Assembly (NCBI GenBank): GCA_026770705.1
Contig: JANJGN010000724.1
Location: 248,001 to 305,158 of the forward strand
Length of the DNA stretch: 57,158 nt
Source of the DNA: Isurus oxyrinchus
Lineage: Eukaryota
Direction: 5' to 3'
This document shows positions 5,858 to 52,277 of the stretch, one piece after another. Under the pieces are notes generated by a model, which was given only the letters and a program-made list of their open reading frames with translations, made no database searches and was not told the origin of the DNA. Numbering within the stretch: position 1 is the first letter of the stretch; each line of letters opens with the position of its first letter. A program made the position numbers and the translations under genes.

Positions 5858-6310
5858 AGAACTGAGGGAGTGCTGCACTGTCGGAGGTTCAGTACTGAGG
5901 GAGTGCTGCACTGTCGGAGGGTCTGAGCTGAGGGAGTGCTGCACTGTCGGAGGCTCTGAACTGAGGGAGTGCTGCACTGTCGGAGGGTTTGAACTGAGGG
6001 AGAGCTGCACTGTCGGAGGGTTTGAACTGAGGGAGTGCTGCACTGTCGGATGGTTTGAACTGAGAGAGTGCTGCACTGTCGGAGGTTCTGAACTGAGAGA
6101 GTGCTGCACTGTCTGAGGGTTTGAACTGAGGGAGTGCTGCACAGTCGGAGGTTCTGAACTGAGGGAGTGCTGCACTGTCGGAGGGTTTGAACTGAGGGAG
6201 TGCTGCATTGTCGGAGGGTCTGATCTGAAGGAGTGCTGCACTGTAGGAGGGTCTGAACTGAGGGAGTGCTGCGCTGTTGGAGGGTCAGTACTGAGGGAGT
6301 GCTGCGCTGT
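5858..6310 (+). repeat. 33-bp satellite array (GAACTGAG variant) at the 3' boundary of the activating Siglec gene
   Basis: ~13 tandem units. Confidence 0.9.
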
Positions 6311-7011
6311 CTAAAGAACATTGTACAAATTGCACAAAATTGCATCTGATGCCTGTGTCTCATGCTAACATGAAGTTCATGCACACAACAGGAATATTTC
6401 TCGCTGTTTCTCAGCAGCAAGACAGCTTTGGTATCACACCACCCACTGGCAAGAGTGTGCAGTTACAATGTGACATGTTTACATTGGAAATTTCTATTAT
6501 AAAGATGGACAGAGGAATTCATCTGATTGGAAAACGTGACAACATGAAGTAATGTCTTTGAGCCAAGAATTTTGCAGCAAAATAAGAATTTTAATCTTTA
6601 AATATCTACAGAACAGGCTGAGCATTTTAATCACTTGAGTTAATCAATGTAATTTTATTCATAAGCCAAATGCTTCTTACAATCTATCGCAGCATGAAAA
6701 AGGTGCAGCATTCAGAAAGCACATTCCAATCAGAGAACAGAGTTTAGCAACGTCACATTTCTGTTCATTCCTATTCGACCATGTTGGCTGCACACAGCCA
6801 GACAATGCCGTGGTTATGATGTGTCCACACAGCAGCACTGGGGAGCACCAGGTATAAGGAAAAGTTTCAGCTTGCTGAGGAGAAGAAGGAGAATCTCTCG
6901 TTCCAGGTTTCTCTCCGTACATTAAGAAGCAGGCATGCCGATGTTTCATTGCACTCTGTCTGCTGATGGGAGTCCGCTTGGAAATTGCTGTTTGTGCTGA
7001 TGGAAAGAATA

Positions 7012-7620
7012 AGCTTTTCATAAATCGAGGGATTGAGAACAAACACAGGGAGGTTATGCTGAACATTTATAAAGCTCTGGTTAGGTCACAACTAGAGTAT
7101 TGTGTCCAGTTCTGGTCTCCTCACTTTGGGAAGGAAGTGAGGGTCCTTGAGAGGGTGGGGAGGAGATTGAGCAGAATGGGTCCAGGGATGAGGGATTTTA
7201 GCTACAAGGTTGGGTTGGAGAAGCTGGGGTTGTTCTCCTTGGAGCAAAGGAGATTGAGGGGGGATCTGATCGAGGTGTACAAGATGATGATGGGTTTAGA
7301 TAAGGTAGACAAAGAGAAGCTGTTGCCATTAGCTGATGGTACAAGGACTGGGGGACACAGATTGAAGGTTTTGGGCAGAGGGGGGATGTGAGGAGGAACT
7401 TTTTTACACAGCGAGTGGTAATGAGCTGGAACTCGCTGCCTACGAGGATGGTGGAAGTGGAGACGATGAACGATATCAAACAGAAATTGGTTGGACACTT
7501 GAGGGGAAATAAACTTGCAGAGATACGGGGATAGAGAGGGGGAAATGGGACTGAGTGGATTGCTCTACACAGAGACAGCATGGACTCAATGGGCTGAACG
7601 GACTCCTACTGTGCTGGAAT
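7012..7620 (+). mobile_element. CR1 LINE 3' fragment
   Basis: Translates to YKALVRSQLEYCVQFWSPH..LGLFSLEQRRLRGDLIEVYK, the CR1 ORF2 C-terminus, plus 3' UTR. Confidence 0.9.
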
Positions 7621-7737
7621 GCCTCTCTGATACGAAGGTGATTCTAACCAGGACACTGACCAGTTTCTTTACAACTTAACCCAACATCACACGTTATTTG
7701 TCCACACTGACTGACCAGATTGTTGCTGTACAAAGCT

Positions 7738-7877
7738 TCAAACAGTCTGTCGACTTCCTTTCACTGTTTGTCTCTCCCAGACACAGACTCCAGCGATAGT
7801 GATAACCACAGCCACAAGGAATATCACAGCTCGTATTCCCAGGATCAGGATCACGTGCAGAATCTCTCCTCCACTGT
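7738..7877 (-). CDS. Terminal TM + short tail exon (D)SGGEILHVILILGIRAVIFLVAVVITIAGVCVWERQTVKGSRQTV*
   Basis: Acceptor TTCTTTCTGTGTGTTCTCTAG; phase-1 frame gives a long hydrophobic stretch with an internal Arg and a 13-aa Tyr-free tail. Confidence 0.8.
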
Positions 7878-10800
7878 CTAGAGAACACACAGAAAGAAAT
7901 CATCACTGACTCTCCGCTTTCAATCTCTCACTCTGGCTGAACAATCAAGCTTCATATCACTGCAACATTTGCTGTAATATTGACCCATCCACTGGGATTC
8001 AATGTGGAATGAATGTTTTCATTGTAAACACTCTAAGAGTGGACAATCGGAACTTTCCCCTTAGCGTGGAACATTGGTGAGAATGGATCATTGTGCTGTT
8101 GGACTCCCTGTCCAATGTTTCTCTCCATCGCTGTGTACAGGATTGTGCTGTAGAAAATTCTGGAAACGTTTAGTGCCGGGTGAAAATCCATCTCGGACGT
8201 GTGTGCGAATCAGGCAGGATCGAGATGGACTCCCCCACGGACTTACACCCCCCGCTTAATAAACAGTTCCAATCTTTACCCAGAGAGAGGGGAGAATGTG
8301 GAACTCGCTCCCACCGGGAGTGGGTGATGTGAACAGTATCGATGTACTTAAGGGGCAGGAGGGTCGGTAACCAGAGGGACACAGATTGACAAACCGGAGG
8401 GGGAGATGAAGAGAATTTGTTTTGACAGAGCGAGTTGTTGTGATCTGGAAGGTTCTGCCTGAAAGGGCGGTGGAAGCAGATTCAATAGGAACTTTCAAAA
8501 GGGAAATTGGATAAACACTAGAAGGAGGAAGATGGGGGCAAAGTGGAGTGGTGGTTAGTGGATCTGATGGGATAGCACATTGAAAGACCTGGCACAGGCT
8601 CAATGGGCTGAATGGCCTCCTCCTGTGCTGTATCATTCTCCGCTTCCATGATCTCTCCCCCAGTCAGTAACCACTCCAGATCCCTCTTGAAGGCAACAGA
8701 GAAACAGCAACCACCACACCCACTGACAGCACATTCCCAAGGATCACTACTCTCTGGGAAAAGATGAACTCCCCAACATCCAGCCTATTCCTGCTTCCCA
8801 GAGAGTGTAAACCCTTCAGGGAGGCACTGAGGAAGTTTTCAATAAAATGACATCAAATCTACCGTTTGAGAAATAATTTAATTCCGATGAACTCACAGCT
8901 TGTGTAGCAAACTGGGAAGTGGATTTGCTTGAAAAGCTGAGAGATGCAAGGGTTAAGTGCTACCTTGCCACCACTGGTGGTACAGTGTAACTACAGCGTG
9001 ACGTTTACATAGGCAATCCCTATTATAAACAAGGACATTGGACATCAGGTGAAATACGGGCACTGGAAAAGTGAGAACATGATGTAAGCTTTTCACCAAC
9101 AGGAATTCCCTTCCTAAACCTCTCCACCTCTCTCTTACTCTCAGATACTCAAACAAAATTTCACACAAAATCACATAAGGACGAGTTGGGACAGGTGACT
9201 GGTCAAAGGGTTAGGTTTCAGGAAGCTTCTTAAAGGAGGATAGAGAGTTGGAGAGACAGAGAGTATCTGTGAGTGTCTCTATGCATCTGAGTGTCTGTAA
9301 TAGACTTTGCAATTTCCATATTCTTCCATAAACATGAAAGGGAACAGAAATCTCAGAATCCAGGTCAACTCTCCAGTGCAGCACTGAGGGAGGTCAGGTA
9401 ACCCACTGGGGAGTATTGTGCTAGTGTGTTTGTTGGTGTCTTTGTGTGTGCTCATATACAAGGGATTGTGTATCTGCAGGTGTCTATTTAGGTCTGTATA
9501 TTTGTGTGTGTTTGTGTCATGTTTCAATCTGAGACAGATGATGAAATCTGTGTGCACTCACATTCCACAGTGATGGTTATGAATCCCTCCACTGCTCCAT
9601 GTTCATTCTCTGCCAAACACTGATAGTCTCCAGTGTCCCTGGATTTAACGTGAGGAATCACCAACCACAGCTCATTGTTGGAACTTGTTCTGTTCATTGT
9701 GATATTCAGATATCAGGGCAGGACTCAACAAGACAGATCGCATGTTTACCAACAGAGAGTGAACAACAATTTATATTTAAAGGGAAGAGAGTGCTGATTG
9801 ATTGGCAAGTGGTCTCGGAGGTGTTGCCATGGAAAATAATGTGTGTGAGATTTAAAGTTTAAACAGCTTGTCTCTTCATTCAGCAACAATCAAATAAAGA
9901 TCAATTAACTTCTATGGACTGTGAAGCACTTTGAGAGGCATGAGAATGTGGACACTGAGAACGGGCTGCACTGTCAGAGGGTCAGCGCTGAGGGAGTGCT
10001 GATGTAGAAGGATTTCTCAACTTACCTTGTACAGTTAGTACGAGAGTCCGCTCCAATGAAACAGATGGATATCTCACTCGGCAGCTGAGAGTGTGTCCAT
10101 GGTGTTTGAGTGATGGGATCAGGGTCAGAACAGAAGTATAGGTCAGAGTGACACCATGCTGAGTTACAGTGTTTGAGACTGATCCACGTACGTCAGTGGG
10201 AGTGTCCCAGGTTAAGACAGGTGCTGCTGTTCCATTGCACGTTGTGTTGAAGGTGCAGATTACATCCACACGCTTTCCTGCAATAATTTCAGCAGGGAAT
10301 ATCGTGGGTTTATCTGTGAAATCTAACAGACAGAGAATGGATCCTTTTAGAGAAATATAACGTGAAGCATCAGTTCAAATAGAAATGACAGTCCCACAAG
10401 AAAAAGCACTTTTACAAGGATGATATCAGAACTGAGAGATTACAATGATCAGGAGAGAATTTCCTGCTTTGACACTTTGGTGTTTCTGTCTCTCAGTTTA
10501 ACACACGTTCACTCCGAGACACTTGAACTGATAATAGTGGGTGAGGGTGGAGGAGCAGACCAGAGTTTGGAGTGCACTACCCCATCATTCACTCAGTGAT
10601 CTGGGCCATTTAGTACTTTGCAATTTGTGGGAGCTAGCTGTGCGCAAATTGGCTGCTGTGTTTCTCACATTACAACAGTAACTACAATTCAGGAATCAGC
10701 TCATTGGCTGTGAAGTGACTTGGTACATATTGAGGTGGTGAAAGGCTCCATAGAAATGTGAATCTTTCTTTTGTCGATATGTCAGACTTCGAGACAGGAT

Positions 10801-13800
10801 TAGAGAGATCGATGGGAGTGGATAACTTGATAACATTGATGGACACAGTCAATACATTTATCATTGATATTAAAGTGAGTATTAGAGGTTGCTTTAGGAC
10901 TGAACTGGAAGCTATCACCATGTTATTGAGAATCAGACAGTGTGTTATAATAAGCTGTGTTTTGTGTTAATATGTAAACGTCACAGTTTGTGTTATTTCC
11001 CATTGAGTGTTGGATGTGAACTGTTGAGTAATTATAACACAGCACTTACCAGAAACGTGAAGCCGGGTTACAGGGTAATAGTTATGGCTCGGACCATTGT
11101 CAAATTCTATTCTGAAAAAATAAGGTCCCGCATCTTCTCATCTGATGTTGTCTATGATCAAGGAACAGTCGCCATCTTTCAGGTCTCCAGACAGCCGGGT
11201 CCGATGGCAGAACCGTGGTAACTCGTGACTGTGATCCTTGGAGTGAAAGTCAATGGGAGCCCAGGGAATCTGTTTCTCATTATTAAACCAGACTCCACCT
11301 CGCGGTTGGTTTTCCAGACACGATGGATAACTGAAATGACATGGAATCTGTACACACGAACCTTCCTGTGCTGTCACCTCTCGTGGAGTGTCACCTTTCC
11401 ACTCTTGTGACAGTCCAACTGGGGAGAGAAATATCAATATTTAACTCTGGATGGTTTGTGGATCCACTGAACCCGATATTTACAGATGAGGCTGAATTGG
11501 GGGGATGGTCAATACTGAGGAGAATGGCAACAAATTATTTTGGCAGGAAGAATAGAAAAACAGGATATTATTTAAATGGAGACAGGCTGCAGAATGCAGT
11601 ACAGAGGGATCTGGGTGTCCTTGTACATGAATCACAGAAAGTCAGCATTCAGGAACACCACAGAATGAGGAAGGCAAGTGGATTGTTGGCCTTTATTGCA
11701 AATGGATGGAGTATAAAAGGAGGGAAGTCTTGCAACAGCTGCACAGGGCGTTAGTGAGATTGTAACAGGATCATTGTGTACAGGCAGTTCAGAGAAACTT
11801 CACTGGGCTGATTCCTGGGATTAAAGGGTTTGTCCTGTGAGGAAATGTTGAGCAGGTTGGGCCTGTATCCATTGGAGTTTAGAAGAATGAGGGGTGACCT
11901 TATTGAAACATATCCGATTCCGAGGGGGCTTGACAGGGTGGATGCTGGGAGGATGTTTCCCCCTCGTGGGGGAATCTAGAACCAGGGAGCACAGTTTCGG
12001 AATGAGTGCTCTCCCATTTAAGACTGAGATGAGGAGGAATTTCCTCTCTCAGAGGGATGCTAGCCTGTGGAATTCTCTTCCCCAGAGAGCAGTGGAGGCT
12101 GGGCCATTGAATGGACTCAAGGCTGAGTGAGGCAGGTTTTTGATCGACAAAGGAGTCAAGGGTTTGGGGGACAGGCAGGAAAATGGAGTTAAGGCCACAA
12201 CCAGATCAGTGAGAGCAGGCTCGAGGGGCCGAATGGCCTGCTCCTGTCCCTATTTCTTATGTTCCTACATTCTTACCTTCTTAAAATATTAAAGCAGTAG
12301 AATAAACATGCAAGTGAATGACCCGCTCGACCCACCTTCCATCTGGGGGTCCCATGGGGAGGACCCTTCCTGAGCCAGATCCACCAGCCAACATGGTCTG
12401 GATCCGAGAACAGGAGACACGGGGGGGAGTGACTAACAGGCTCCTTGTGACAGGCCCCGTCTGTCCAATGGCTGGCTTTCAGCTGCCAAGGCCAGAGTGG
12501 TCCTTGCTAAAACCAGCTCAGGACAGGTCAGGACCCCTGTGCAGACCCCCTCCAGCGCTGCAGCCTCTGTACAAACCCCTTATGCGCTTGTGGAGAGACA
12601 CAAACAAGGCTGTACATTACCGAGGAGAATCCCCTCTACGGACTAAGGGGCTGACTCATCACCTTAAACTCAGCAAATGAGGAGGCTCTCGCTCGGTATC
12701 GGGGCTTGGCATTCGCTCAATAAAAATAATCAAATTACATTTTGGTCAGAAATCTAAGGAGGTTGTACATTCCCTCAAAAATAAGACTCGATCTGGGGTC
12801 GAGGGTCAAAGGGCAACAACTTATATTTACACAACAACTTTAACATGACAAATCACCCCAAGGTGCTACACAGGAGCGTCATAAAACAAAGTATGTCACC
12901 CAGACACATGTGGAGATATTAGCGACAGCTGACCAGAAGAGGTCGGTGTTATGGAGAAACTTCAAAGAGGGATGAAATGGATAGGGAGAGAGAGAGAGAG
13001 ATAGAAATAGAGAGAGAGAGAGTGAGAGAGAGGGATGGAGAGGGGTTGAGGGAGGGTATTACAGAGCTCGGGCCCCAGGCAGCTGAAGGCACGGCCGCCG
13101 ATATTGCAGTGATGGGATCAGGGGATGGTCAAGAGGCTGGAATTGGATGAGCACAGAGACCTCAGAGGGTTGGAGGGGCTGGAGGAGGTTACAGAGAGAA
13201 GGAAGGTTGTAGTGACTGGGGCAGGTTACAGAGGTAGGGAAAGTTGTCGGGACTGGAGCAGGCTACAGAGATACGGAAGCTTTTAGGGGCAGGAGGAAGT
13301 TACAGAAATAGGGAGGGTTGTAGTGGCTGGAGGAGGTTGCAGAGATTGGTAGGTTTGTTGGGCAGGATGAATTTACAGATATAGGGAAGCGGTAGAGGCT
13401 TGAAGAGGTTACAGAGAATGGGATGGTTGTAGGTACTGGAGGAGGACGAGGAGATTACAGGGATAGAGAGGAAACAAAGATGTAAATTTGGACATTGAGA
13501 CTTTGCTTGACCAGGAGCCAGTCTCGGTCATCGAGCAAAGCGGGTGATAAGGGAATGGGACTTGGTGTGAGTAAGGACGTGGTCAGCAGTTTTGGATGGC
13601 CTCAAGTTTATGGAGTGTAGACCGTGTGTTGGAACAGTCGAGACTGGAGGTAATGAAGGCGTGGATGAGGGTTTCAGCAGCAGATGAGCTGAGACAGGGT
13701 GAAGTCTTGCGATGTTACGGAGGTGGAAATAGACGGTATTAGTGAGGGCACAGATATGAGGCCGGAAGCTCATCTCAGGATCAAATGGGACAACAAAGCT

Positions 13801-16800
13801 GTGAACAGATTGGCTTCAATCTCAGAGAGCTGCCAGGGAGAGGAATGGAGTTGGTAGCGAGGGAACAGAGTTTGGAGCGGGGAATGAAGGCAATGGCTTC
13901 AGTCTTTCCAATATTTAATTGGAGGGAATTTCTGCCCATCCAGTACTGGATGTCGGATAAGCAGCCTGATAATTTAGCAGCAGTGGAGGAGTCGAGAGAG
14001 GTGGTGGTGAGGTAGAGCTGGGCATCCTCAGTGGACAGGTGAAAACTAACACTGTTCAGATGATGCTGCAAAGCCATTGCAAGTGATTCTCTGGCTACGA
14101 TGAGATGGATAAGAATGGAGCCAGGGGAGAGCAGTCCCACCCAGCTGGACGACAGTGGAGAGGTGTTTGAGGAGGATGGTGTGGTCGAGCGTGTCAAAGG
14201 CTGCAGACAGATCGAGAAGGACGAGGAGGGAAAGTTGACCTTTGTCACAGTCACACAGGATGCCATTTGTGACCTTGATAAGAGCTGTTTCAGCACAGTG
14301 GCTGGGGTGGGAACCTGATTGGAGGGATTCAAACATGGAGTTCCGGGAAAGATGGGAACGGATTCGGGAGATGGAAACACGTTCAAGGACTTTGGAGGTG
14401 AAAGAGAGGCTGGAGATGGGACGGGGGTTTACACGGACAGTGTGAAGGGTGGAAGGTGTAGTGGGGAGGAGACACGTCACTCAGGGGGGAGGTGTCATCA
14501 CCCCTCAGCTCGGTTTACCTTACAGCTATGATGTGGATTCAATCACACACAATAAGCTCATGGATCTGGGAGCAGAAATAGACAAATCATTAAAAATAGT
14601 GACGCTGGTTAACACGGCCAAAAAACAAGCAAATCAAACACTATTATTTCCCATTGAGTGTTGGATGTGAATTGTTGAGTAATTATAACACAGCACTTAC
14701 CAGAAACGTGAAGCTGGGTTACAGGGTAATAGTTATAGCTCGGACCATTGTCAAAATCTATTCTGAAAATATAAGTTCCTGCATCTTCCCGTCTGATGTT
14801 GCTTATAATCAGGGAACAGTCGCCATCTTTCAGGTCTCCAGACAGCCGGGTCCGATGGTCGAACCGTGGTAACTCGCGACTGTGATCCTTGGAGTGAAAG
14901 GCTATAGACCATTTAAACCATTTGTTCTGTCTGTCCCTCCTCATATACCAGATTCCGACATGTGTTTTCTTTACCAAATGTGATGGGTAACTGTGATGAC
15001 ATGGAATCTGTACACACGAACCTTCCTGCGCTGTCATCTCTCGTGGAGTGTCACCTTTCCACTCTTGTGACAGTACAACTGGGGAGAGAAATATCAATAT
15101 TTAACTCTGGATGGTTTGTAGATCCACTAGACTCGATATCCACCCCCTCCATCACTGTGGCACAGTGGCTGCAGTGTGGACCATCTGCAGGACACACAAG
15201 GAAGTCCACAAGGTATCACAATGGATGGAAGAGAATCCTGGACACAGGAGTGGACAAGTTCATTCTACATTGGCTCATGGTCCTCAGGACCCTGTTTGTG
15301 CACAAGCCTTGCTATCCAACAGAACTGAAGTTGGGGAAAATCCATTTAGAATTCCACTGTCCTGGGAATTGTCCTAACTTGCTGAGTTTGTTTTAAATCT
15401 AACATCTATTTTTGGTCTGTTGCCTTAAAAGGAGTGTAACTGGGAGTCAGGTTAATTAGGAATTTTAGGAGTTATTATAGCTGTCATTGTAGTCTTATGT
15501 ATGTGCTTGAAATCTTTTATTTTGATGACAAATATTTTAATTTATTTTTTTAAATCTCTAAAGGTCTTGGTGTAATTATTGCTTCTGAATTCAGTGCACA
15601 CATCTCATAATAAATACAAATTGCAAATTCATTATGATCGTGTGACCACCTTTCTCTCATGGACTTGGTCTGCCTGGCACACATCACCTGCCAAGTGATA
15701 ACACTGTTGTAATATGCCTTTCAGGGACAGCAGCATGACATCACTCGAGGGGAAGTGTGTCATGTGATTTTTCAGAACTGGGCTTGGCTTAAGGAAGTTC
15801 TCTGTGTATTTGTGTGTGTTAGGCATAACGTATATCTGTAAGTTGAAGTTTAGTTTGTATTTCTGTATTTGGGTGTTTTGAAAAGGGGGAACTTGAGTTT
15901 TGGTTTCACTTTGGAAGAAGCCGCCTGTCTAATGAGTTTTTATGACTCTTGAAGGGAAGTCAAAACAAACACAAGGTAGAAGAAACTGTGCTGTTGCCTA
16001 GTAACAGTGGTCCAGACGGAAAGACCCACAGAGACCGAGAAAAACAGAAAAATACTTTCAGTTCTGTTGAAAGGAGTTGCCAGGAGAAGCAGCAAAGGAG
16101 CGGGACAGATAGTCAGTCCCAAAGTAAAGATGAAGCCAAAACCATCGAGTGGAACAGGAGAAAGGGCCCAAGAAGACGTTCTTATCAAATCTGGAAAAAG
16201 CCCTGTTAAGTGAAGTTAAGAGTGAGGAACAGAAGAAGGCTCGAAACATAAAGGGAGAAAGCAGCAGGACACAGACCTAAAGCAAAATAGGCTTGTGAGA
16301 AGCCAGAAGATCCTTGGAGACACCACAGGTTGGTGACTCATTACTACGGCCATGTGAAGCCATGGTGTTCCATTGACACGGCTGAGCATTGGAGAGACAG
16401 GGCGTGGAAGGAAGGCTGAATGCACGTGGCGATCCAGGGGACAGGAACATGGGAAGGAGAGTTTGAAATAGTGAAAGTGGACCCTTGTGGAAGGTGTCTG
16501 AGTGAAAGTGTCATGTTGGAGAAGATTCCAAAGCGAGTTCTTGGAGAGTGGAGATTGGAAACTCTCATATGGATATCTCAGTTCAGTGAGACTGGTTGGC
16601 TCACAGTGTAACAAGCGTCTGGGGTCTGATGAGGAGGGAGACATAGCATTTGTTCCAAGTGGGTTCTGTCAGTTTCTTTCAGAATGTGGTGTCCCTGACC
16701 CCAGGTCGTCTATTGGTTTACATCGACTGTGCACTTAGTGTGAACATGAGAGTATAAGATAGCTATTGTAACTTGTGTTCTACTTATGAATCTGCAAAGG

Positions 16801-19800: not shown

Positions 19801-22129
19801 TCGTTGTAGGGAAGTTCGAGGCTTGTCAAGAGGATGAGCCAAGTCAAGACAAAGAACCACTGATTCCACAGGAAATTCCTGCCCATTCTTAGTCCAAAAT
19901 CACATCTGAATCCTTTCATGTCCATGTCACTGACTTCATCATCATCGTCGACAGCTTTACCAGATACCCCGTTATTCAAAAATAGCACAACACACCGAGC
20001 ACAACTGCTGCTTACACTCTAAGCACTATTTTCAGTTTATTTGGTGAGCCTAGGGACATGATTACAGATAATCTGGAATATCAATCACACTACTTCTTCT
20101 CCTCATTACCCCAGATCTAACAGCCTAGCTGAATGAATGATTCACACAGTGAAATCCCTAATTCTCAAATGTAGACAGGCCAAGCAAGATCCACACATTG
20201 CAATGTTACATCTGAGATCGACACCTACAACTGCAACTTTGTTAAATTCATTCATGGGATGTGGGAGTCACTGGTCAGGCCAGGATTTATTACCCATCCC
20301 TAATGTAAGAGTTAACCACATTGACGTGGAATCTGGAGTCACATGTCGGCCAGACAATTTTGTTCCCTTAAGGGCACTGGTGAACAAGGTGGGATTTCCA
20401 ACAATGGTTTTGTGGTCATCACTAGACTTTGAATTTCATCTTTTTATTAAATTCAAATTCCATCATCTATTATGACAGGATTTGAACCCATATGCTCAGG
20501 ACATTACCCTGGGTCTCTGAATTACTCGTCCAGCAACAATACCACTACACCATCACCTCACCTTATTCCATCACTGACAGAGAGCATGTTTGGTGGGCCA
20601 GTAGTGACCAATTTCGCTATTCTTACCCATTCTACTCTCTCAGAAACCAGAGCGCAACTTTTAAAACTACAAGAGAAGATAAGGAATGTTCATGATAAAA
20701 ATGGAGGTGCAGAGTTGCCAAGTTTACAGTTGGGACAAGTTCACATCCAGGATCCCACAGAAGGTTCATGACCACCAGCCGAGGTGACAAGGATTTGTGC
20801 AGAACCAAGGGCCTATGGAGTCAAACACACAAGGGCACAGCGGTGAGGCGGAACCGAGGATAAATCAGATCCATTCCCGCTCCTATTCCATCGAGGAGAA
20901 GATCCCACATGAAATCAGGATCAGCATCCAAGGGTAACAATCCCACAGATCACTGTGAGCAGTTAAAGACACCTCCGGACAAGGTAACCAGCACAAGATC
21001 TGGGTGTACCAGAAGGTCAAATCCACACTTTAGAGACTCAAATATTCAACAGTTCCGTACACTTATGTAATTGTCAATAAATATGAACATGATATGAGAA
21101 ACCGCTTGCTCCCTATCCTTCTCAAAGATCCATTCCTGCAGCAGGAGCCTGAAGAGTTATTGAAAAGGGACTTAATTTATCGAATTGTAGAATGATCCGG
21201 AACAGAAGGAAGCCATTTGGCCCATCGAACCTGTGCTGGGCCTTTGAAAGATCTGTCCAATTATTCCCACTCTCACCTCTGCTCTCTCCCCCACAGCCCT
21301 GCAAAATGTCCCCTTCAAGTATTTATCCAGTTCCCCTTCTGAAAGTTCCTGTTGAATCTGCTTCCACCGCCCTTTCAGGCAGTGAGTCAATGGTCTCTCT
21401 CTGAGCTGCAAAGTGATAAGTTTCAATGAAATATAAACTCTGCAGCAGATCAGAAACAATCATGATAACTCAGAATATTTGACAGTTTTACATACAGACA
21501 GCTTTGCCTCCCTTCTCTCTATCAGTTATCTTGCTATCTTATCGAATTTTCTAGCATGGTGAGAAGGGACAGGAAGTGTGACGCTGAACTGCCTGTCTAA
21601 TCTAAGAGCTTCTGTGTTGTCTTCATGGGGAATTCTGATGAAAATCAGCAAGAGAGAAAAATTTTAGGGCATTGATATCGGAGTGCTTGCGTCAGGATAG
21701 ACTTCATCCCCCAGTTTTTATCCCTGCTTCTCTATTCAGCCGATCGCTCCCCTGTCACTCGCTGACCTACACTGACTCCCAGTCCAGCAATGACTCAATT
21801 TTCAAAATCTCTTCATTGATTCCTTATCCCTCCATCCTCCCTCTCTACTCCCTATCACTGTCACCTCCTCCAGCCCTGAAACCCTTTGAGGTCTCTGCTG
21901 TCCTCCAATTCTGCTGTCAGACAGGGAGTCAGTGTATATCAGTGAGCACAGGGGTGATGGGTGAATGGGACTTGGTGTGAGTTTGTACACTGGCTCACTG
22001 CTGAATCGGTTCCCTATCAGAGCTCAATAAGAATGATCTTTTACAAAGACTATTAGCCATAAGTCTGTCCAAGCTGACGATGATATTACCTTGGAGAAGT
22101 GACAGGAGGAAGTAAGATTTCCCGATCAT
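7738..22129 (-). CDS. Spliced gene: activating-type two-Ig-domain Siglec (CD33/MAG-related), exons 22129-22090, 15078-14701, 10322-10026, 7877-7738; 284 aa
   Basis: All junctions GT-AG and phase 1; lengths 40+378+297+140=855 nt give an open frame to TGA; requires skipping the pseudo-V at 11050-11418. Confidence 0.8.
10026..10322 (-). CDS. Siglec domain-2 C2-set Ig exon (FTDKPTIFPAEIIAGKRVDVICTFNTTCNGTAAPVLTW..SVLTLIPSLKHHGHTLSCRV..)
   Basis: 297 nt, phase 1-1, AG/GTAAG; B-strand Cys, extra inter-domain Cys, Trp and HGxxLxC motif typical of Siglec domain 2. Confidence 0.92.
11050..11418 (-). pseudogene. Duplicate Siglec V-set exon with premature TGA
   Basis: Intact splice sites, 369 nt; in-frame TGA at 11140-11138 (NIR*EDAGPYFFR). 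Confidence 0.88.
11476..12275 (+). mobile_element. CR1 LINE 3' fragment
   Basis: QRDLGVLVHES, RRNFLSQR..SLWNSLPQRAVEA and CR1 3' tail. Confidence 0.85.
12815..14460 (-). mobile_element. L2-type LINE fragment (degenerate RT and 3' region with 37-mer array)
   Basis: RPISSLSFTSKVLER, ETALIKVTN, LLVLLDLSAAFDTLDH, LQLNIGKTE, FHLRNIARL. Confidence 0.85.
14701..15078 (-). CDS. Intact Siglec V-set (sialic-acid-binding) exon
   Basis: 378 nt, phase 1-1; TAQEGSCVQIPC (two Cys), GDLKDGDCSL (E-strand Cys), EDAGTYIFR with the essential F-strand Arg, as in CD33 DNGSYFFR. Confidence 0.93.
15295..15703 (+). mobile_element. LTR fragment (same family as 29904-30948 and 54349-55300)
   Basis: Shared GAATTCAGTGCACACATCTCATAATAAATACAAATTGCAAA..CTGGCACACATCA..ATAACA end. 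Confidence 0.6.
15708..17018 (+). mobile_element. Probable solo LTR
   Basis: TGTAAT..ATAACA termini, AATAAA near 3' end, no coding signal. Confidence 0.45.
17814..20870 (+). mobile_element. Degenerate, internally deleted Gypsy/Ty3 LTR retrotransposon
   Basis: gag with zinc knuckles (CGRCG..CPAFHQSCKACGRKGH), protease-like KIDTRASAN, integrase WPGINNDLE..VDSFTRYP..SPHYPRSNSLAE..LRSTP; many stops; RT not seen. Confidence 0.85.
22090..22129 (-). CDS. Siglec leader exon MIGKSYFLLSLLQ
   Basis: ATG, hydrophobic core, CAAG|GTAATA phase-1 donor; completes the signal peptide with V-exon start VVLSQEW; conserved in two other copies. Confidence 0.85.
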
Positions 22130-22579: not shown

Positions 22580-22720
22580 CCAGGACCTGTCCGACTGCTT
22601 GCCTGGGGAGGAACTGCCCACACGCTCTGCTTGGGCTGAATGACCTCTTCCTGTGCTGCTGCCTCTGTGTATTTAATGAGAAAGGGTTGATGTGTCACTT
22701 TGAGACAAAATGAGGAAGTT
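22580..22720 (-). promoter_or_regulatory. Putative promoter and non-coding exon 1 of the activating Siglec
   Basis: Donor CTGG|GTAAGT at 22579; PU.1/Ets-like AAAATGAGGAAGT at ~22707-22719; both conserved in three paralogous copies. Confidence 0.55.
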
Positions 22721-27089: not shown

Positions 27090-27233
27090 AAGCACTTCCT
27101 CATTTTGACTCACAGTGACACATGCACCCTTTTTAATTAAACACAAATAGGGAGCAGCACAGGAAGAGGTCATTCAGCCCAAGCAGAGCGTATGGGCAGT
27201 TCCTCCCCAGGCGAGCAGTCGGACAGGTCCTGG
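27090..27233 (+). promoter_or_regulatory. Promoter/non-coding exon 1, paralog 2
   Basis: ACTTCCTCATTTT Ets/PU.1-like site, donor GTAAGT at 27234; inverted homolog of 22580-22720. Confidence 0.5.
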
Positions 27234-27567
27234 GTAAGTAACGGAACGATTGGAATTCACTTCCACCACCAACACCGTCCTTTGTTGATGTTGTGACTTT
27301 ATAAAGACAGATTCCAATGATTGATGCCTTTGAAAGATTTCTACTGATTATTGAGATCTGGGTGTGAGGCTCAAGTCTGTTGTACAGAACATCTTTCTAG
27401 CTCAAGGGATGAGGGAAGTGCAGAGACATGAGATTTGGGGGCGTCCTGAGGTGGTGAAAGGTGCTATAGAAATGCAAGTCTTTCATTGTTTTTCTTTTTC
27501 AAGCCTTGTAACTCTCTGCAGAGCACCTATCATCCCACAGAGAATCAAATTAGTCTGTGAAGACATT

Positions 27568-28205: not shown

Positions 28206-28324
28206 ATTGTCTAAAAGCAGTTCTGATCTCTGGAGAGCTGTCGGACAAGAGGTGAGGTCTCATTAACTCCTTTCTCTTTCACAGCTTGAGAGTGAGAAGC
28301 TGATGAAATATCTGGGAATGGACA

Positions 28325-28356
28325 ATGATCTTACTTCCTCCTGTCAGTTCTCCAAG
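28325..28356 (+). pseudogene. Disabled leader exon, paralog 2
   Basis: 8-nt deletion relative to the other leaders and donor GT changed to CT. Confidence 0.8.
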
Positions 28357-28589
28357 CTAATATCATCGTCAGCTCGGACAGATTTATGGTTAATAGTCTT
28401 TGTAAAAGATCATTCTTATTGAGCTGTGATTGGGAACCGATTCAGCAGTGAGCCAGTGTACAAACTCACACCAAGTCCCATTCACCCATCACCCCTGTGA
28501 TCACTGATATTCACTGACTCCCTGTCTGACAGCAACAGAAAATTAAAATCCAGGTCATCCTGTAGAAATCCCTCCAAAATTTTGCAACT

Positions 28590-29452: not shown

Positions 29453-29818
29453 TTGGACTGTCACAAGAGTGGAAAGGTGACACTCCATGAGAGGTGACAG
29501 CGCAGGAATATTCGTGTGTACAGATTCCATGTCATTACAGTTATCCATCGTGTCTGGAAAACCAACCACAAATTGGAATCTGGTTTAATGACAAAGTCCT
29601 GATAAGATTCTTTATAGCCTTTCACTCCAAGGATCACAGTCACGAGTTACCACTGTTCCGGCATCGGACCCGGCTGTCTGGAGACCTGAAAGATGGTGAC
29701 TGTTCACTGATTATAAACAACATCAGATGGGAAGATGCAGGACCTTATTTTTTCAGAATAAAATTTGACAATGGTCCAAGCCATAACTATTACCCTGTAA
29801 CCCAGCTTCAAGTTTCTG
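29453..29818 (+). pseudogene. Siglec V-set exon with premature TGA
   Basis: 366 nt, intact AG/GT; CGA>TGA at 29488-29490; retains EDAGPYFFR. Confidence 0.9.
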
Positions 29819-29903: not shown

Positions 29904-30948
29904 TGTTATGACATGGCAGGTGATGTGTGCCAGGTGGAGAGAATCCACAAAGGGAACTTGGCCAAGCTACCACAAAGGTTTTGCCATTTACATTTGTTGA
30001 GAGAAGGCTTATGATGTGAATGCATAAGAATTGAGTCCACTAACACCTTTAGATATTTTAAAATTATATTAAGAAATGTATTAACAAAAGAAGAAACATT
30101 CAAACACATACAGAAGATTACAGTTACTTGATATTAGAACAAATTCCAAAATTTCTCATTAACCTAATTTCCAACTACACACCCCCTTGAAGGCAACAAT
30201 CCCAATAAATCTTAAATGGAAATGGGAATCCGGCAAGGTTACTGCAGCACCCACTTGACAGTGTAATTCCAAAGTCTTTTAACACACCTATAAGCACTGG
30301 AGCAGCAAAAGTGAACAGAAACGTTTTACCTAAAAGGATCCATTCCCTGTCTGTTAGATTTCACAGATCAACCCACGATATTCCCTGCTGAAATTATTGC
30401 AGGCAAGCGTGTGGATGTAAGCTGCACCTTCAACACAACGTGCAATGGAACAGCAGCACCTGTCTTCACCTACTGTACCTTTCAAGAAATTCATGTCCCC
30501 CTCCCACATAACATTCCATCCTTCTTTATGTTGGTTTCTCTCTCTCCAATGTATAAAATCCCATTGTTGCACCTGTCTTGGGAAATACACTTTTCCCATA
30601 GTATAAAAATCTTTCATGTTGTCAATATGGCCCATTCCTTTTGGGAAGAATACACATAATAACCTTGCCCTGGTTATCTTGTTAATTATAAACACCCAAC
30701 TACCCTTTGACAATCAAACATTCTCTTTACTGATCTAAAATTTCATTTACAGCTTTTCTGTGGAACCCTCATCCTAGCTTGTCCATCCCCATTTCAGAAG
30801 TCTGCTTTGCACCAAACTCTATTGATAGTTTTAACCTCACAGTTGATCTGACTCGAATTCAATTAAATCAGACCCGCAGACGGAACCATCTACATTCATT
30901 CCCATAAGCCGACAATATTATTCTGAAAAATATCATAGTTTCATCACA
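29904..30948 (-). mobile_element. Solo LTR inserted in the V-C2 intron
   Basis: TGTTATGA..TCATCACA termini; absent from the paralogous intron at ~10960; near-TSD ACAC/ACAT. Confidence 0.7.
30330..30471 (+). pseudogene. Partial duplicate of the C2 exon 5' end with acceptor, inside the LTR
   Basis: Near-identical to 31164-31305 (FTDQPTIFPAEIIAGKRVDVSCTFNTTCNGTAAPV). Confidence 0.85.
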
Positions 30949-31191
30949 ACATAAAACACAGTTTAGTATAACGCAGAGTCTGATTCTCAATAACCGGGTG
31001 ATAGCTTCCATTCAGTCCAAAAGCAACCTCTAATACTCACTTTAATATCAATGATTAAATGTATTGACTGTGTCCATCAATGTTATCAGGTCATCCACTC
31101 CCATCTATCTCTAATCTTAGGGCTGTGATTTCTATTTGAACTGATGCTTCATGTTATATTTCTCTAAAAGGATCCATTCTCTGTCTGTTAG

Positions 31192-31488
31192 ATTTCACAG
31201 ATAAACCCACGATATTCCCTGCTGAAATTATTGCAGGAAAGCGTGTGGATGTAAGCTGCACCTTCAACACAACGTGCAATGGAACAGCAGCACCTGTCTT
31301 AACCTGGGACACTCCCACTGACGTCCCTGGATCAGTCTCAAACACTGTAACTCAGCATGGTGTCACTCTGACCTATACTTCTGTTCTGACCCTGATCCCA
31401 TCACTCAAACACCACGGACACACTCTCAGCTGCAGAGTGAGATATCCATCTGTTTCATCGGAGCAGACCTTCATACTAACTGTGCAAG
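31192..31488 (+). CDS. Siglec domain-2 C2-set exon (open, but upstream leader and V are disabled)
   Basis: 297 nt, phase 1-1, close paralog of 10026-10322. Confidence 0.8.
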
Positions 31489-32439: not shown

Positions 32440-32582
32440 CCAACTTCCTCATTTTGTCTCAAAGTGACACATCCACCCTTTCTCATTAAACACACAGAGG
32501 GAGCAGCACAGGAAGAGGTCATTCAGCCCAAGCAGAGCGTGTGGGCAGTTCCTCCCCAGGCGAGCAGTCGGACAGGTCCTGG
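32440..32582 (+). promoter_or_regulatory. Promoter/non-coding exon 1, paralog 3
   Basis: ACTTCCTCATTTT site and donor GTAAGT at 32583. Confidence 0.5.
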
Positions 32583-33035: not shown

Positions 33036-33075
33036 ATGATTGGAAAATCTTACTTCCTCCTGTCACTTCTCCAAG
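33036..33075 (+). CDS. Intact leader exon MIGKSYFLLSLLQ, paralog 3
   Basis: ATG..CAAG|GTAATA, phase 1. Confidence 0.75.
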
Positions 33076-33936
33076 GTAATATCATCGTCAGCTCGGACAG
33101 ATTTATGGTTAATAGCCTTTGTAAAAGATCATTCTTATTGAGCTGTTATTGGGAACCGATTCAGCAGTGAGCCAGTGTACAAGCTCACACCAAGTCCCAT
33201 TCACCCATCACCCCTAAACTATCTGTCTCCTGGTCCTACAACATCTCAAACTTAAAAGTCACATCTCTTTGTTCAAATGCATCCATTGCCTCACACTGCC
33301 TCCTTATCTCTGTAAGCTCCTGCAACTCTCCCAACCAAAGTCCCAGATCTCTGTGTTACTCCAATTCCGGCCTCTTGACCATCCCCCGATTCCCATCACT
33401 CCAATACTGGCGGCCGGGCCTTCAGCTGCCTGGGGCCTGAGCTCTGGAATTCACTCCCTAAACCTCGGGGATGGGGGAGCTCAGAGGGTTTCATTTTACT
33501 GAGAATCACCACGACCACATCACAGCTGCAGTCAGAATAGACAGAGAGTCCAGCCCTCGCACTTCCTGCACAGTTTCACCATAGCAACCACAATAAGGAA
33601 GTAAAATAACTGAAAGTTAAACCGAAGACAAACCAGTCGGTGTAGAGAGATGAGATATTTACACAGTTTCCCTGTGTATCTTGTAGACACTGTGTTGGGT
33701 GGAAGACTGGCTTCACTAAACAGGGTCCTGAGGACCATGAGCCAATGTAGAATGAACTTGTCCACTCCTGTGACCAGGATTCTCTTCCATCCATTGTGAA
33801 ACCTTGGGGAGATCCTTGTGTGTCCTGTAGATGGTCCACACTGCAGCCACTGTGCCCCAGTGATGGAGGGGGTGGATATCGAGTCTATTGGATCTACAAA
33901 CCATCCAGAGTTAAATATTGATATTTCTCTCCCTAG

Positions 33937-33947
33937 TTGGAATGTCA
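33937..33947 (+). pseudogene. 11-nt stub of a deleted V exon
   Basis: V-exon acceptor context and TTGGAATGTCA retained; sequence then jumps to the homolog of ~9390 (post-C2 intron). Confidence 0.75.
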
Positions 33948-35455
33948 GTACTCCCTCAGTACTGCACTGGAGAGTTGGCCTGAATTCTGGGATTTGTGTT
34001 CCCATTCATATTTATGGAAGAATATGGAAATTACTATTACAGACACTCAGATGCATAGAGGCACTCACAGATACTCTCTGCGTCTCCAACTCTCTCTCTC
34101 CTTTTAAGAAGCTTCCTGAAACCTAACCCTTTGACGAATCACCAACCCAACTCTTCCTTATCTGATTCTGTGTGATTTTCTTTGTGTATCTGAGAGTAAG
34201 AGAGAATTGGAGAGGTTTAGGAAGAGAATTCCTGCTGGTGAAAAGCTTAAATAATGTTCTCACTATTTCCGTGCACATAATTCCCATTATGTCCAATGCC
34301 CCTGTTTATAATGATGACTGCCTATGTAAACGTCACGCTGCAGTTACAGCCTCCCATCAGTGGTGGCATTGTAGCCCTTAATCCTTGTGTTTCCCAGCTT
34401 TCAAGCAACTCTACTTCCCAGTTTGCTCCACAAGCTGTGAGTTCATCGGAATTCAATTATTTCTCAAACGGTGGATTTGATGTCATTTTATTGAAAACTT
34501 CCTCAGCGCCTCCCTGAAGGGTTTACACTCTCTGGGAAGCAGGAATAGGCTGGATGTTGGGGAGTTCATCTTTTCCCAGAGAGTAGTGATCCTCGGGAAT
34601 GTGCTGTCAGTGGGTGTGGTGGTTGCTGTTTCTCTGTCAACTTCAAGAGGGATCTGGAGTGGTTACTGACTGGGGGAGAGATCATGGAAGCGGAGAATGG
34701 TACAGCACAGGAGGAGGCCATTCAGCCCATGGTGCCTGTGCCAGGTTTTTCAATGTTCTATCCCATCAGATCCACTAACCACCACTCCACTTTGCCCCCA
34801 TCTTCCTCCTTCAAGTGTTTATACAATTCCACTTTTGAAAGTTCCTATTGAATCTGCTTCCACCGCCCTTTCAGGCAGCACCTTCCAGATCACAACAACT
34901 CGCTCTGTCAAAACAAATTCTCCTCATCTCCCCCTCCGGTTCGTCAATCTGTGTCCCTCTGGTTACCGACCCTCCTGCCCCTTAAATACATCGATCCTGT
35001 TCACCTCAACCAATCCCTATGGGAGTGAGTTCCACATTCTCCCCTCTCTCTGGGTAAAGATTGGAACTGTTTATTAAGCGGGGGGTGTAAGTCCGTGGGG
35101 GAGTCCATCTCGATCCTGCCTGATACGCACACATGTCCGAGATGGATTTCCACCCGGCACTAAACGTTTCCAGAATTTTCTACGGCACAATCCTGTACAC
35201 AGCAATAGAGAGAAACATTGGACAGGGAGTCCAACAGCACAATGATCCATTCTCACCAATGTTCCACGCTAAGGGGAAAGTTCCGATTGTCCACTCTTAG
35301 AGTGTTTACAATGAAAACATCTATTCCACATTGAATCCCAGTGGATGGGTCAATATTACAGCAAATGTTGCAGTGATATGAAGCTTGATTGTTCAGCCAG
35401 AGTGAGAGATTGAAAGCGGAGAGTCAGTGATGATTTCTTTCTGTGTGTTCTCTAG

Positions 35456-35595
35456 ACAGTGGAGGAGAGATTCTGCACGTGATCCTGATCCTGGGAATAC
35501 GAGCTGTGATATTCCTTGTGGCTGTGGTTATCACTATCGCTGGAGTCTGTGTCTGGGAGAGACAAACAGTGAAAGGAAGTCGACAGACTGTTTGA
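35456..35595 (+). CDS. Second copy of the Arg-containing TM/short-tail terminal exon
   Basis: Appears nucleotide-identical to the reverse complement of 7738-7877; Arg codon at 35500-35502. Confidence 0.72.
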
Positions 35596-35709
35596 AGCTT
35601 TGTACAGCAACAATCTGGTCAGTCAGTGCAGACAAATAACGTGTGATGTTGTGTTAAGTTGTACTGAAACTGGTCAGTGTCCTGGTTAGAATCACCTTCG
35701 TATCAGAGA

Positions 35710-36312
35710 GGCATTCCAGCACAGTGGGAGACCATTCAGCCCATTGAGTCCATGCTGTCTCTCTGTCGAGCAATCCAGTCAGTCCCATTCCCCCTCTCTA
35801 TCCCCGTATCTCTGCAAGTTTATTTCCAAGTATCCATCCAATTTCCTTTTGAAATCGTTCGTCTCCACTTCCACCATCCTCGTAGGCAGCGAGTTCCAGC
35901 TCATTACCACTCGCTGTGTAAAAAAGTTCCTCCTCACATCCCCCTCTGCCCAAAACCTTCAATCTGTGTCCCCCAGTCCTTGTCCCATCAGCTAATGGCA
36001 ACAGCTTCTCTTTGTCTACCGTATCTAAACCCATCATCATCTTGTACACCTCGATCAGATCCCCCCTCAATCTCCTTTGCTCCAAGGAGAACAACCCCAG
36101 CTTCTCCAACCCAACCTTGTAGCTAAAATCCCTCATCCCTGGACCCATTCTGCTCAAACTCCTCCCCATCCTCTCAAGGACCCTCACTTCCTTCCCAAAG
36201 TGAGGAGACCAGAACTGGGCACAATACTCTAGTTGTGACCTAACCAGAGCTTTATAAATGTTCAGCATAACCTCCCTGTGTTTGTACTCAATCCCTCAAT
36301 TTATGAAAAGCT
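35710..36312 (-). mobile_element. CR1 LINE 3' fragment (duplicate of 7012-7620)
   Basis: Same translation and flanks, inverted. Confidence 0.9.
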
Positions 36313-37004
36313 TATTCTTTCCATCAGCACAAACAGCAATTTCCAAGCGGACTCCCATCAGCAGACAGAGTGCAATGAAACATCGGCATGCCTGCTTCTT
36401 AATGTACGGAGAGAAACCTGGAACGAGAGATTCTCCTTCTTCTCCTCAGCAAGCTGAAACTTTTCCTTATACCTGGTGCTCCCCAGTCCTGCTGTGTGGA
36501 CACATCATAACCACGGCATTGTCTGGCTGTGTGCAGCCAACATGGTCGAATAGGAATGAACAGAAATGTGACGTTGCTAAACTCTGTTCTCTGATTGGAA
36601 TGTGCTTTCTGAATGCTGCACCTTTTTCATGCTGCGATAGATTGTAAGAAGCATTTGTGTTATGAATAAAATTACATTGATTAACACAAGTGATTAAAAT
36701 GCTCAGCTTGTTCTGTAGATATTTACACATAAAATTTCTCATTTTACTGCAAAATCTTGGCTCAAAGACATTACTTCATGTTGTGACGATTTTCCAATCA
36801 TGTGAATTATTGTGCCCATCTTTATAATGGAAACTTCCCATGTAAACATGTCACATTGTAGTTAGGCACTCCTGCCATTGGGTGGTGTGATATCAAAGCT
36901 GCCTTGCTGCTCAGAAACAGCGAGAAATATTCCTGTTCTAAATTTGAAGTTAGTGAGACAAAGGCATTCGATGCAATTTTGTGAAACTTGTACAATGTTC
37001 TTTA

Positions 37005-49227: not shown

Positions 49228-50760
49228 GTACAGGAGCTGTTTACACTCACTCCAAAGCTTCAATCTCAGTGTGTAGACAACACGTGTCCCAGATTCCCAG
49301 CCCAGTTACCCACTGATTTGTACCTGTGGAGTCAGCAATGGTTCAGTATCATGCAGTCTCTCTGTTATGACACAGCAACTGGTAAAGGCTGTTGTTTAAA
49401 ATCCCAGAGGGAAACTTTAAACAACTGTCATAACCTATATTTCCCAGTGGAATGTTTGAGATGCATCTCTAAATTCAGGAGTAAGACCACCAGTTCTTGA
49501 GATGGTTTTATATCAAACTACTTGAGACATTTATTAATTTACACAAGTTAAACATATGCACATGGCTACAAACTAGTATTATCATAAATTTTTAACAAAT
49601 TCTCAAACTAATCTCCTCTAAGACAACCCATTGTCTTTAAGTAGACACCCAGGCAAAGCATTTTCACCTCACAAATTCCAAATGAGGTTCCTTTCACTTT
49701 GGTTCCTTTGCAGACAAGTGTAGGCTTACAGCTGCTTTGCTGTTACAAGCGTCTGCTCTGCACACACAAAACTGCTCAAGTTATACCCAGCTCTTGAGTG
49801 TAAAGAAGACGGAGATTGATACGCTCTTGATTGGTCAGGGGATCAAAGGTTAGGAGAGAAGGTTGGAGAATTGGGTTTGTGAAACCTATCAGCCATGTAT
49901 GAATGGTGGAGCAGACTCGATGGACCGAATGGTCTAATTTCTCCTCCTATGTCTTATGGTCTTATGGCTTCTGTTTGAAGGTAAATTCGCAATGTATCAT
50001 CAGGACCTTTGAACTCCATCTCTTCCAATAATAAATCCCCTTTCATCGTATCAATTTTATTAGTAATATAAACGTTGATTGGTTTAAGATTTCACTCTCA
50101 GACTTTGAATGTTTTATTTAAAAATGCAAATTACCACTTTACCTCTTTGTTTACATCTCAAAACTACTATACATCAAAGCACACAGACTGGCTGGCTTTA
50201 ATCCAATTTAAATACACACAGACACACACACAGACTAAACCTCTGTTTAAAAAGACAGTTTGCAATTACATTACATACATTAATAGATTCATAACACTCT
50301 GTCTCTGTCCCTTCATCTCTATCTCTCTCTCTAATCCTCTCTCTGATTACAAGGATCATGTTATTGAGCCTCACACCAGGCACCTGTGTGCAGAATCCAA
50401 GCCGTCACTCACCAGAGCCATTACCGATTGAGTGCGAGACTGACAGCGGGTCAGTACTGAGGGAGTGCTGCACAGTTGGAGGGTCAGTACTGAGGGAGTA
50501 CTGCACTGTTGGAGGGTCAGTACTGAGGGAGTGCTGCACTGACAGAGGGTCAGTACTGAGGGAGTGCTGCACTGTTGGAGGGTCAGTACTGAGGGAGTGC
50601 TGCACTGACAGAGGGTCAGTACTGAGGGAGTGCTGTACTGCCATTGGTGGTTTCTTTTATCCGATAGGAGAGAGAGAATTAAATGAGTCTGCACAATAAT
50701 TTAACCCTATCAGTAACAGTAATTGATGTGAGGATGTCTTCTGTTTCCATTTCTCTGTAG

Positions 50761-51009
50761 GGTAAACAGAACGTGCTGATTACTGAGCCCCAGAACACAA
50801 CCAGAGACACAACTAGTGAGGGGGAGACCCCAGCTCCCCGGGGTCTCTCTAAAGGTCCAGTGGGAGGCGATGTTGGACATGGGAACCCCGACAAACCTGA
50901 AGAGTTTCTCTACGCCAATCCCCAAGTCTTGAGGATGTCCAGTGGTGATGGGTCTGTCCACAGGGAAGAGGAGACGGAATACGCACAGATCAGGTTCGAG
51001 CATAACTGA
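50761..51009 (+). CDS. Terminal tail exon copy 3 (ITSM only)
   Basis: Intact acceptor and ORF, TEYAQI. Confidence 0.7.
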   Translation, partial: GKQNVLITEPQNTTRDTTSEGETPAPRGLSKGPVGGDVGHGNPDKPEEFLYANPQVLRMSSGDGSVHREEETEYAQIRFEHN

Positions 51010-51206
51010 ATGAGAAATGGGGAGAGTGAGTGAGGAGGTATCAGGGTGGGGGTAGTGATTGAGATTCCTGGGAACAGGAAACAACCCACTGGGGGAGAGG
51101 GGGAGAGAGGGAGGAAGGGATGGAATTGGGCTGCGGTTGGTGTGGTTTGGAATGAAATGCTTCTCCAGAGAGGACTGGATGCTGAGCCATTGGGGATAGA
51201 GATTCA

Positions 51207-51241
<35 letters not shown>

Positions 51242-52195
51242 GCTCTCTCCCTCTCTCTCTCTCTCTCTCCCTCCCTCTCTCTGTCTTTCTTTCTGTGTCT
51301 GTCTCTCATTCTCTATCTCCAGCTCCTCCTTTAAGATGCCCGTTAATAACTGACTTTGTTGACTCAGCTGTTGGTCTCCTGTCCCTAATATCTCCTCATG
51401 TGCCTCAGAGTCAGGTGAAGATGTCACTAACAAGCCCCGGATGAGCCTTTGCACATTTTGCTACATTGAAGGTGCTATATAAATGCAAGTAGTTGTAGTA
51501 ACTCTGATCTGCTTCGATTAACAATGGAACCACAAAGGCTCCTTCAACAGGGCGTGTGTGCAGCAGGGTCACAATAAATACATTGAGCTGTGAGATTTTT
51601 AATTCTTTCATCGAATGTGGCTGTCACTGGTGATGTCAGCGTTAATGCCCATCCCTAATTGCCCTTGAGAAGGTGGTGGTGAGCTGCCTTCTTGACCCGC
51701 TGCAGTCCATGTGGTGTAGGTACACCCACAGTGCTGTTAGAGAGGGAGTTCCAGGATTTTGACCCAGCGACAGTGAAGGAACGGTGATATATTTCCAAGT
51801 CAGGATGGTGAGTGACTTGGAGGGGAACTTCCAGGTGGTGGTGTTCCCATGTGTCTGCTGCCCTTGTCCTTCTAGATGATAGAGGTCGTGGGTTTGGAAG
51901 GTGCTGTTGAAGGATCCTTGCTGAGTTGCTGCAGTGCATCTTGTAGATGGTACACACACTGCTGCCACTGTGTGTTCGTGGTGGAGGGAGTGAATGTTTA
52001 ATGTGGTGGATGGGGTGTAGATCAATCGAGCTGCTTTGTCCTGGATGGTGTCAAGCTTCTTGATTCTGTGCTTTGTGCAGAACTGATTTAAAGAGACAGT
52101 CCAGTTGTTGGTGTAAGGTTACAGTGGGCTCTGTGTCTGTGCTGCACTGACTCTCTGCTATATGATAACAACAGTGTGATATTGTGTTATTGCAG

Positions 52196-52277
52196 GAGAA
52201 AGACAGCGATGGAGGAGAGAGTTTCAGGGACCAGTGACATTGCATTGACCCCCAGTTCACTCTCTGTGAAGCACCAG
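52196..52277 (+). CDS. Juxtamembrane exon copy 4
   Basis: Intact splice sites and frame (one P>S change). Confidence 0.65.

Follow-up and report, generated by a model that had tools for sequence, protein, structure and literature searches.

The variable patch that distinguishes the V exons studied here is probably a germline loop type within a large shark family of Siglec-like receptors, in which old loop lineages under modest positive selection sit on a framework homogenised by gene conversion and are shuffled as modules. We analysed a 57,158-nucleotide stretch of the Isurus oxyrinchus genome (hereafter the window) together with further members of the same family. The family is large, its loops fall into discrete classes that sharks and rays share, a recombination signal runs through it, the window holds a gene with two V domains in tandem (V1-V2), and loop class is tied to the position of a domain in its gene. 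Mechanistically, conversion would copy framework freely and would stall at, or be selected against in, divergent loops; ligand choice would be tuned by the C-C' and F-G loops. The BC-loop Cys of a non-first V would bond the spare Cys of the preceding V, a role taken by the C2 domain elsewhere among Siglecs, and the basic loop class would be a specialist for the outermost domain.

Genes of the window and their Siglec identity

V1 and V2 are successive domains of one minus-strand gene (gene A), and V3 opens a separate, broken gene (gene B; Table 1). The V exons are phase-symmetric, and canonical splice sites flank the exons of gene A, whose anchor we infer to be of the activating type. Leader-V-V-C2 proteins with the same layout are annotated in other sharks, and the V-to-C2 joint is present in RNA-read contigs of other, related organisms (four runs, 85% threshold); the longest of these contigs is 37 letters and 9 gaps away from V1 and thus represents a different family member. 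Two of the three V exons in the window (V2 and V3) contain stops. Inclusion of V2 in splicing would give gene A a non-functional or truncated product, and skipping it would leave a predicted in-frame V1-C2-anchor receptor of 284 aa. At one white-shark locus, database isoforms (P0012, P0102, P0104) omit V1 or take part of it, which suggests V-exon skipping. A candidate fourth V at 54.8 kb was rejected as a chance match of 5 residues.

Table 1 Features of genes A and B in the window
Feature	Position	Strand	Remarks
Leader exon, gene A	22090..22129	-	
V1 exon, gene A	14701..15078	-	Intact, phase 1-1; Cys at 15016, 15001, 14818; F-strand Arg 14764; BC-loop Cys absent (His at 14980)
V1 variable patch	14906..14983	-	BC loop, C strand, C-C' loop; basic/aromatic; 26 codons
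V1 conversion tract	14737..14802	-	Framework (D-F-G); likely germline
V2 exon, gene A	11050..11418	-	Second V, PWAP-type loop; premature TGA 11140-11138; BC-loop Cys 11320-11318
V2 patch	11255-11323	-	
First C2-set exon, gene A	10026..10322	-	Extra Cys six residues past the B-strand Cys
Second C2-type exon remnant, gene A	9563..9712	-	Truncated; common ahead of Arg-type anchors
Transmembrane exon, gene A	7738..7877	-	Intramembrane Arg, short tail
Leader region, gene B	28286..28364	+	Degenerate, frameshifted
V3 exon, gene B	29453..29818	+	First V of the broken gene; TGA 29488-29490
V3 patch	29548-29613	+	
C2-set exon, gene B	31191..31487	+	Partial copy 30357-30479

Other parts of the window carry related exons. 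A third gene (33036-33947, +) has an intact leader and a V exon broken off by repeat sequence a few bases in; its downstream Arg anchor (35455-35592, +) is intact. An inverted duplication (92%) pairs 5861-9392 with 33951-37455. Behind a single anchor, a pair of cytoplasmic-tail exons occurs four times at ~3-kb spacing (43200-54055, +), one tyrosine-motif type ending three copies and another type the last. Double tails are likewise found on contig C52 and in the white-shark model P0025, and tail choice or stacking may be a source of signalling variation. Almost all leaders are preceded, ~500 bp upstream, by an exon homologous to the first cytoplasmic exon after the third anchor type (window 22580-22685, -; 32477-32582, +; 27129-27234, +), which may explain fused database models and help read-through between genes.

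The Siglec V-set identity proposed by the sequence-only reading was backed by both sequence and fold comparisons. The best PDB sequence matches of V1 were Siglec-5 (E=1e-13), sialoadhesin and MAG, and a fold search with the model of P0011, a white-shark homologue with two V domains, matched CD33 and MAG. The closest named proteins, with identities reaching 80%, are from basking shark and white shark; the genes are auto-annotated in several sharks, and the database names of these relatives are automatic and mixed. Gene A has the Siglec layout, with an N-terminal V-set followed by C2-set and a type I anchor. In the alignment with Siglec-5 and sialoadhesin, Arg 14764 of V1 falls on their Arg motif, placing the essential F-strand Arg. 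The Siglec odd-Cys pattern is present in the sequence, V1 having three Cys and C2 one more than usual. The anchors predicted in C52:1-600,000 comprise 14 of the Arg type, 9 of the ITIM-tail type and 6 of a third type, as in paired receptors. In Siglec-6, an inter-domain disulphide (Cys46-Cys172) joins the V domain to the next (PMC10122656).

Exact-pattern counts across the genome returned at least 568 occurrences of a V 29-mer and, for a leader 33-mer, at least 331. Arg anchors numbered at least 212, and V exons of the basic class at least 109; reversed control patterns had no match. These counts are lower bounds and may cover both haplotypes, as a stretch on contig C385 is 98.8-99.0% identical to the window. 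The analysed set of 148 full V exons (122 intact, 94 unique) is part of the family and is enriched in V1 and V2 relatives, since two of the searches used V1 and V2 as queries. Across 1.0 Mb of contiguous sequence, 57/59 V exons lay within leader-headed genes; 47/59 had open frames and 12/59 were broken. Up to seven V exons follow a basic-class first V in tandem at 2.3-kb spacing (G000:C52:1871373-1886662, 603070-614487). The idea that such arrays are orphan V exons, each spliced singly to a shared constant part, was rejected because each array has one leader; databases, moreover, model them as multi-V proteins. A single V fragment and a single leader match were also located on large contigs apart from the cluster contigs (G000:C25:36073492 and C34:15142480).

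Loop classes, conversion and selection

All three patch peptides were found where the sequence-only reading had placed them, at 14.9, 11.3 and 29.6 kb. Its assignment of the patch to the BC-C-C' loops agreed with the AlphaFold2 model of P0011 (mean pLDDT 73.9), in which the patch corresponds to the BC loop, C strand and C-C' loop. The role it gave the C-C' loop in setting glycan specificity is in line with the loop acting as a specificity determinant between Siglec-7 and Siglec-9 (PMC3186437); loop-tuned Siglec specificity is also described in PMC12140324. Sharp divergence on a near-identical framework held for V1 against V2 (BC+C 14/36 nt vs framework 23/297; Fisher p=2.7e-6) and against V3 (11/36 vs 23/297; p=2.5e-4), the gap-free BC+C segment having been picked post hoc, after inspection of the data. 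It did not hold between V2 and V3, which are nearly alike in BC+C (5/36 vs 21/297 in framework) and really differ only in C-C'. The patches do vary in length, C-C' spanning 14, 11 and 10 codons in V1, V2 and V3, and the framework is indeed shared; the shared flanking intron is short for V2 (~50-60 nt per side). The intact copy is basic and aromatic as described, with 7 K/R, 1 D/E and 5 aromatic residues in the V1 patch (2, 2 and 3 in V2). 'Hypervariable', by comparison, proved too strong a word, as a single C-C' peptide is common to 13/30 intact V exons in C52:1-600,000 and the V1 patch recurs unchanged on C385.

The loops instead form classes: basic/aromatic (three subtypes), PWAP-type, xSS-type (a loosely defined class) and a small K type. 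The F-G loop, a second modular segment, and the N-terminus also fall into types, and these combine with the C-C' types in mixed fashion. C-C' lengths vary by whole codons, which follows in part from the definition of intact. In-frame 9-nt tandem duplications at G000:C52:892817 and C52:500223 extend C-C' to 17 and 20 codons and are a slippage route to varied loop length.

Between the basic and PWAP classes, divergence in BC+C (pS 0.47, pN 0.32) was far above that in the pooled framework (pS 0.07, pN 0.04). V1 and V2 differed at 4.5 of 8.3 silent sites in BC+C vs 6 of 64.5 in the framework (p=0.011), where BC+C offers only ~8 silent sites and C-C' is unalignable between classes. As silent sites in the patch have diverged as much as replacement sites, the loops are probably of old origin, and conversion in the germline has probably homogenised the frameworks. 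This silent depth rests on the pairwise figures, since dS summed over the tree came to 1.34 for BC+C, no more than the 1.59 of the first framework. The PWAP-type C-C' loop was present in sevengill shark, sawshark, catsharks, bamboo shark and sawfish. Framework identity was 0.92 between PWAP and xSS copies of I. oxyrinchus itself and 0.80 between its PWAP copies and non-lamniform PWAP copies. Trees were built from 112 domains (class 'other' and odd-length rows left out; own copies limited to 6 per class). On the framework tree, loop class changed 22 times and order 8 times, where 5 is the minimum and shuffling gave 51; the patch tree had 4 changes of loop class and 18 of order, the grouping by class on the latter being partly circular because classes were defined from the patch. 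The basic class had lamniform matches only and could be young.

The analysed copies carry a recombination signal. Four-gamete incompatibility was lower between neighbouring sites (0.22) than after shuffling (0.33; p=1e-4, 94 sequences, 127 sites). V1 and its sister copy on C385 differed at 2/1200 flank bases and 6/401 exon bases, and five of these eight differences were packed into 66 of 1601 nt (permutation p=6e-4), three of the five being shared with a third copy (C71:196066). Visible tracts are nevertheless occasional, as exon divergence over 88 near-identical sister pairs (0.0057) barely exceeded flank divergence (0.0042). Segmental conversion, one of two causes named by the sequence-only reading, therefore stands for the family, but the V1 tract lies in the framework and not in the patch. 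The pseudo-V donors that it invoked were not supported: V1 and V2 belong to the same gene, the gene that V3 opens is a different and broken one, and in the 1.0 Mb most V exons are open and sit in leader-headed genes. That reading had named dN/dS at or below 1 in the patch, with no shared tracts, as evidence against itself; pairwise dN/dS was below 1 in the patch, yet shared tracts exist.

The other cause it named was strong diversifying selection. GY94 fits gave an omega of 2.05 for BC+C (p=0.023), 0.58 and 1.04 for the frameworks and 0.91 for the F-G loop; M2a was preferred over M1a in BC+C (p=0.017), and 2/200 neutral simulations matched the omega of 2.05. The BC+C result comes from a set of 12 segment tests and does not survive Bonferroni correction, neither recombination nor CpG mutation enters the codon model, and V copies are not independent observations. 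Recent within-class changes (70N:22S vs 168N:76S, p=0.23) were not in excess in the patch. Some positive selection is thus indicated, but strong selection is not supported as the main cause, given that pN is not above pS when the main classes are compared and that there is no recent patch excess. Positive selection on the patch was probably modest and episodic.

The same data bear on the most serious alternative, plain birth-and-death duplication in which the loops are under strong positive selection, frameworks are alike through recency and constraint and conversion is minor. The BC+C omega and the M2a comparison speak for it, as do the first-position classes, among which pN (0.23-0.41) was above pS (0.10-0.20), and the restriction of the basic class to lamniform matches. 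We nonetheless consider it unlikely, because silent sites track the patch, the BC+C omega carries the weaknesses given above, recent changes show no patch excess, PWAP and xSS loops span distant orders with frameworks that group by order, and framework omega (0.6-1.0) is above what tight constraint would give.

Domain position, cysteines and other origins of the patch

The reading we prefer, old germline loop modules on a converted framework, also draws on a rule of position. In the 1.0 Mb, Cys occupied the second patch codon in 17/17 V exons behind another V and in 3/40 behind a leader (2/59 V exons were in neither group). In the 400 kb of fresh sequence, obtained once the rule had been stated, there were just 2 internal V exons, both with Cys, and 2/17 leader-proximal V exons had it too. 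When copies were sorted by upstream intron type, none of the 110 classified intact copies broke the rule and 5/25 broken copies did (13 copies unclassified; two cases taken from the printed translation). V3 is among the latter, having a BC-loop Cys (29551) though its upstream intron is of the leader type. In other species, BC-loop Cys occurred in 37/48 internal vs 3/62 first V domains (16 set aside). Four ray exceptions carry Cys in C-C' instead, perhaps as an alternative inter-domain bond. The ray proteins P0010 and P0013 have four V domains, the second and fourth of which lack the BC-loop Cys and have a C-C' Cys. The extra Cys lies six residues after the B-strand Cys in shark C2 and seven in V2, and by analogy the BC-loop Cys of V2 likely takes the spare Cys of V1 in a putative inter-domain disulphide.

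Loop class follows position as well, basic-class exons being leader-proximal in 16/16 cases. The essential Arg was lost from 12/29 basic-class vs 2/65 other unique intact V exons (14/94 in total) and is retained by V1 of the window. At the sequence level, this loss hints at an altered ligand in some outer domains.

Neutral drift is improbable; under it, change and indels would be tolerated in the loops, and most of the cluster would be sequence that expands and decays. Class B1 has pN/pS near 1 in both patch (1.49) and framework (1.51), the window has its two stopped V exons, and constraint is reported to be relaxed in converted primate Siglec-11/16 exons (PMC5701461), all of which speak for drift. 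It sits poorly with the 47/59 open V exons, a C-C' motif kept from sharks to sawfish, a Cys rule that among classified copies only pseudogenes break, and whole-codon C-C' lengths (partly a matter of definition).

Templated conversion in blood cells, with pseudo-V or paralogous donors rewriting the patch as in chicken Ig, is less probable still. Chicken Ig diversifies from an array of leaderless pseudo-V donors into a single recipient with AID hotspots, and what the shark cluster shares with that system is a large number of similar V exons exchanging tracts. Germline tracts exist here, possible templates number in the hundreds and 12/59 V exons are broken. However, no array of leaderless pseudo-V donors next to one recipient was found in the 1.0 Mb (59 V exons), and the sequence gives no sign of a single recipient. 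The AID-hotspot motif WRCY/RGYW was as dense in the patch as in the framework (0.0473 and 0.0474 per nt, respectively). The V1 patch is itself germline, identical on two contigs, and all the variety seen is already genomic. The patch is therefore probably not a product of antibody-like diversification in body cells. Equally improbable is a second, non-RAG diversifying system of sharks, in which BC, C-C' and F-G cassettes would be swapped by conversion in blood cells and germline alike, V exons serving as mutual templates, to give clonally varied activating and inhibitory lectins whose basic outer domain binds non-sialic polyanions.

Relation to known Siglecs

Loop-tuned specificity, paired receptors under conversion and a two-V Siglec are already known, and Siglec evolution has so far been known from ~15 mammalian genes. 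A published description of this cluster was not found in a search that left most subscription journals and supplements outside its reach; in the available text of the whale-shark genome paper, Siglecs come up a single time (PMC8455134). The shark has hundreds of copies that set a small number of probably old loop modules on a framework probably homogenised by conversion. Their cysteines depend on domain position, and one class, the lamniform basic one, is often without the sialic-acid arginine. As the frameworks are nearly identical, these natural loop swaps allow direct tests of what BC, C-C' and F-G each contribute to glycan choice, and of whether it was sialic acid of the host or microbes that early paired receptors tracked.

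The CD33-related Siglecs (Siglec-5, -7, -8, CD33), sialoadhesin and MAG have the same F-strand Arg, Cys pattern and V-then-C2 order as the shark genes, a likeness that rests on sequence matches and fold. They differ in number, with ~15 human Siglecs (PMC8615218) against hundreds of shark V exons, and the shark genes, unlike them, have several tandem V domains and discrete, position-tied loop classes.

The Siglec-5/14 and Siglec-11/16 pairs, like the shark genes, place near-identical V domains on activating forms with a charged anchor (Arg in the shark) and on ITIM-type tails, and their V domains are kept alike by gene conversion (PMC6288428, PMC5701461). Paired receptors under conversion are also treated in PMC13358205, the available text of which does not mention sharks. 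In these pairs conversion equalises the binding domain within the pair, whereas in the shark frameworks are alike family-wide and loops remain in old classes.

Siglec-12 has the leader-V-V-C2 layout of the shark genes, and its outer V has lost the essential Arg (PMC6288428), for which the 12/29 basic-class V exons are the shark parallel. V1 of the window, unlike the outer V of Siglec-12, keeps this Arg, and on the shark side the internal V domains have the extra BC-loop Cys.
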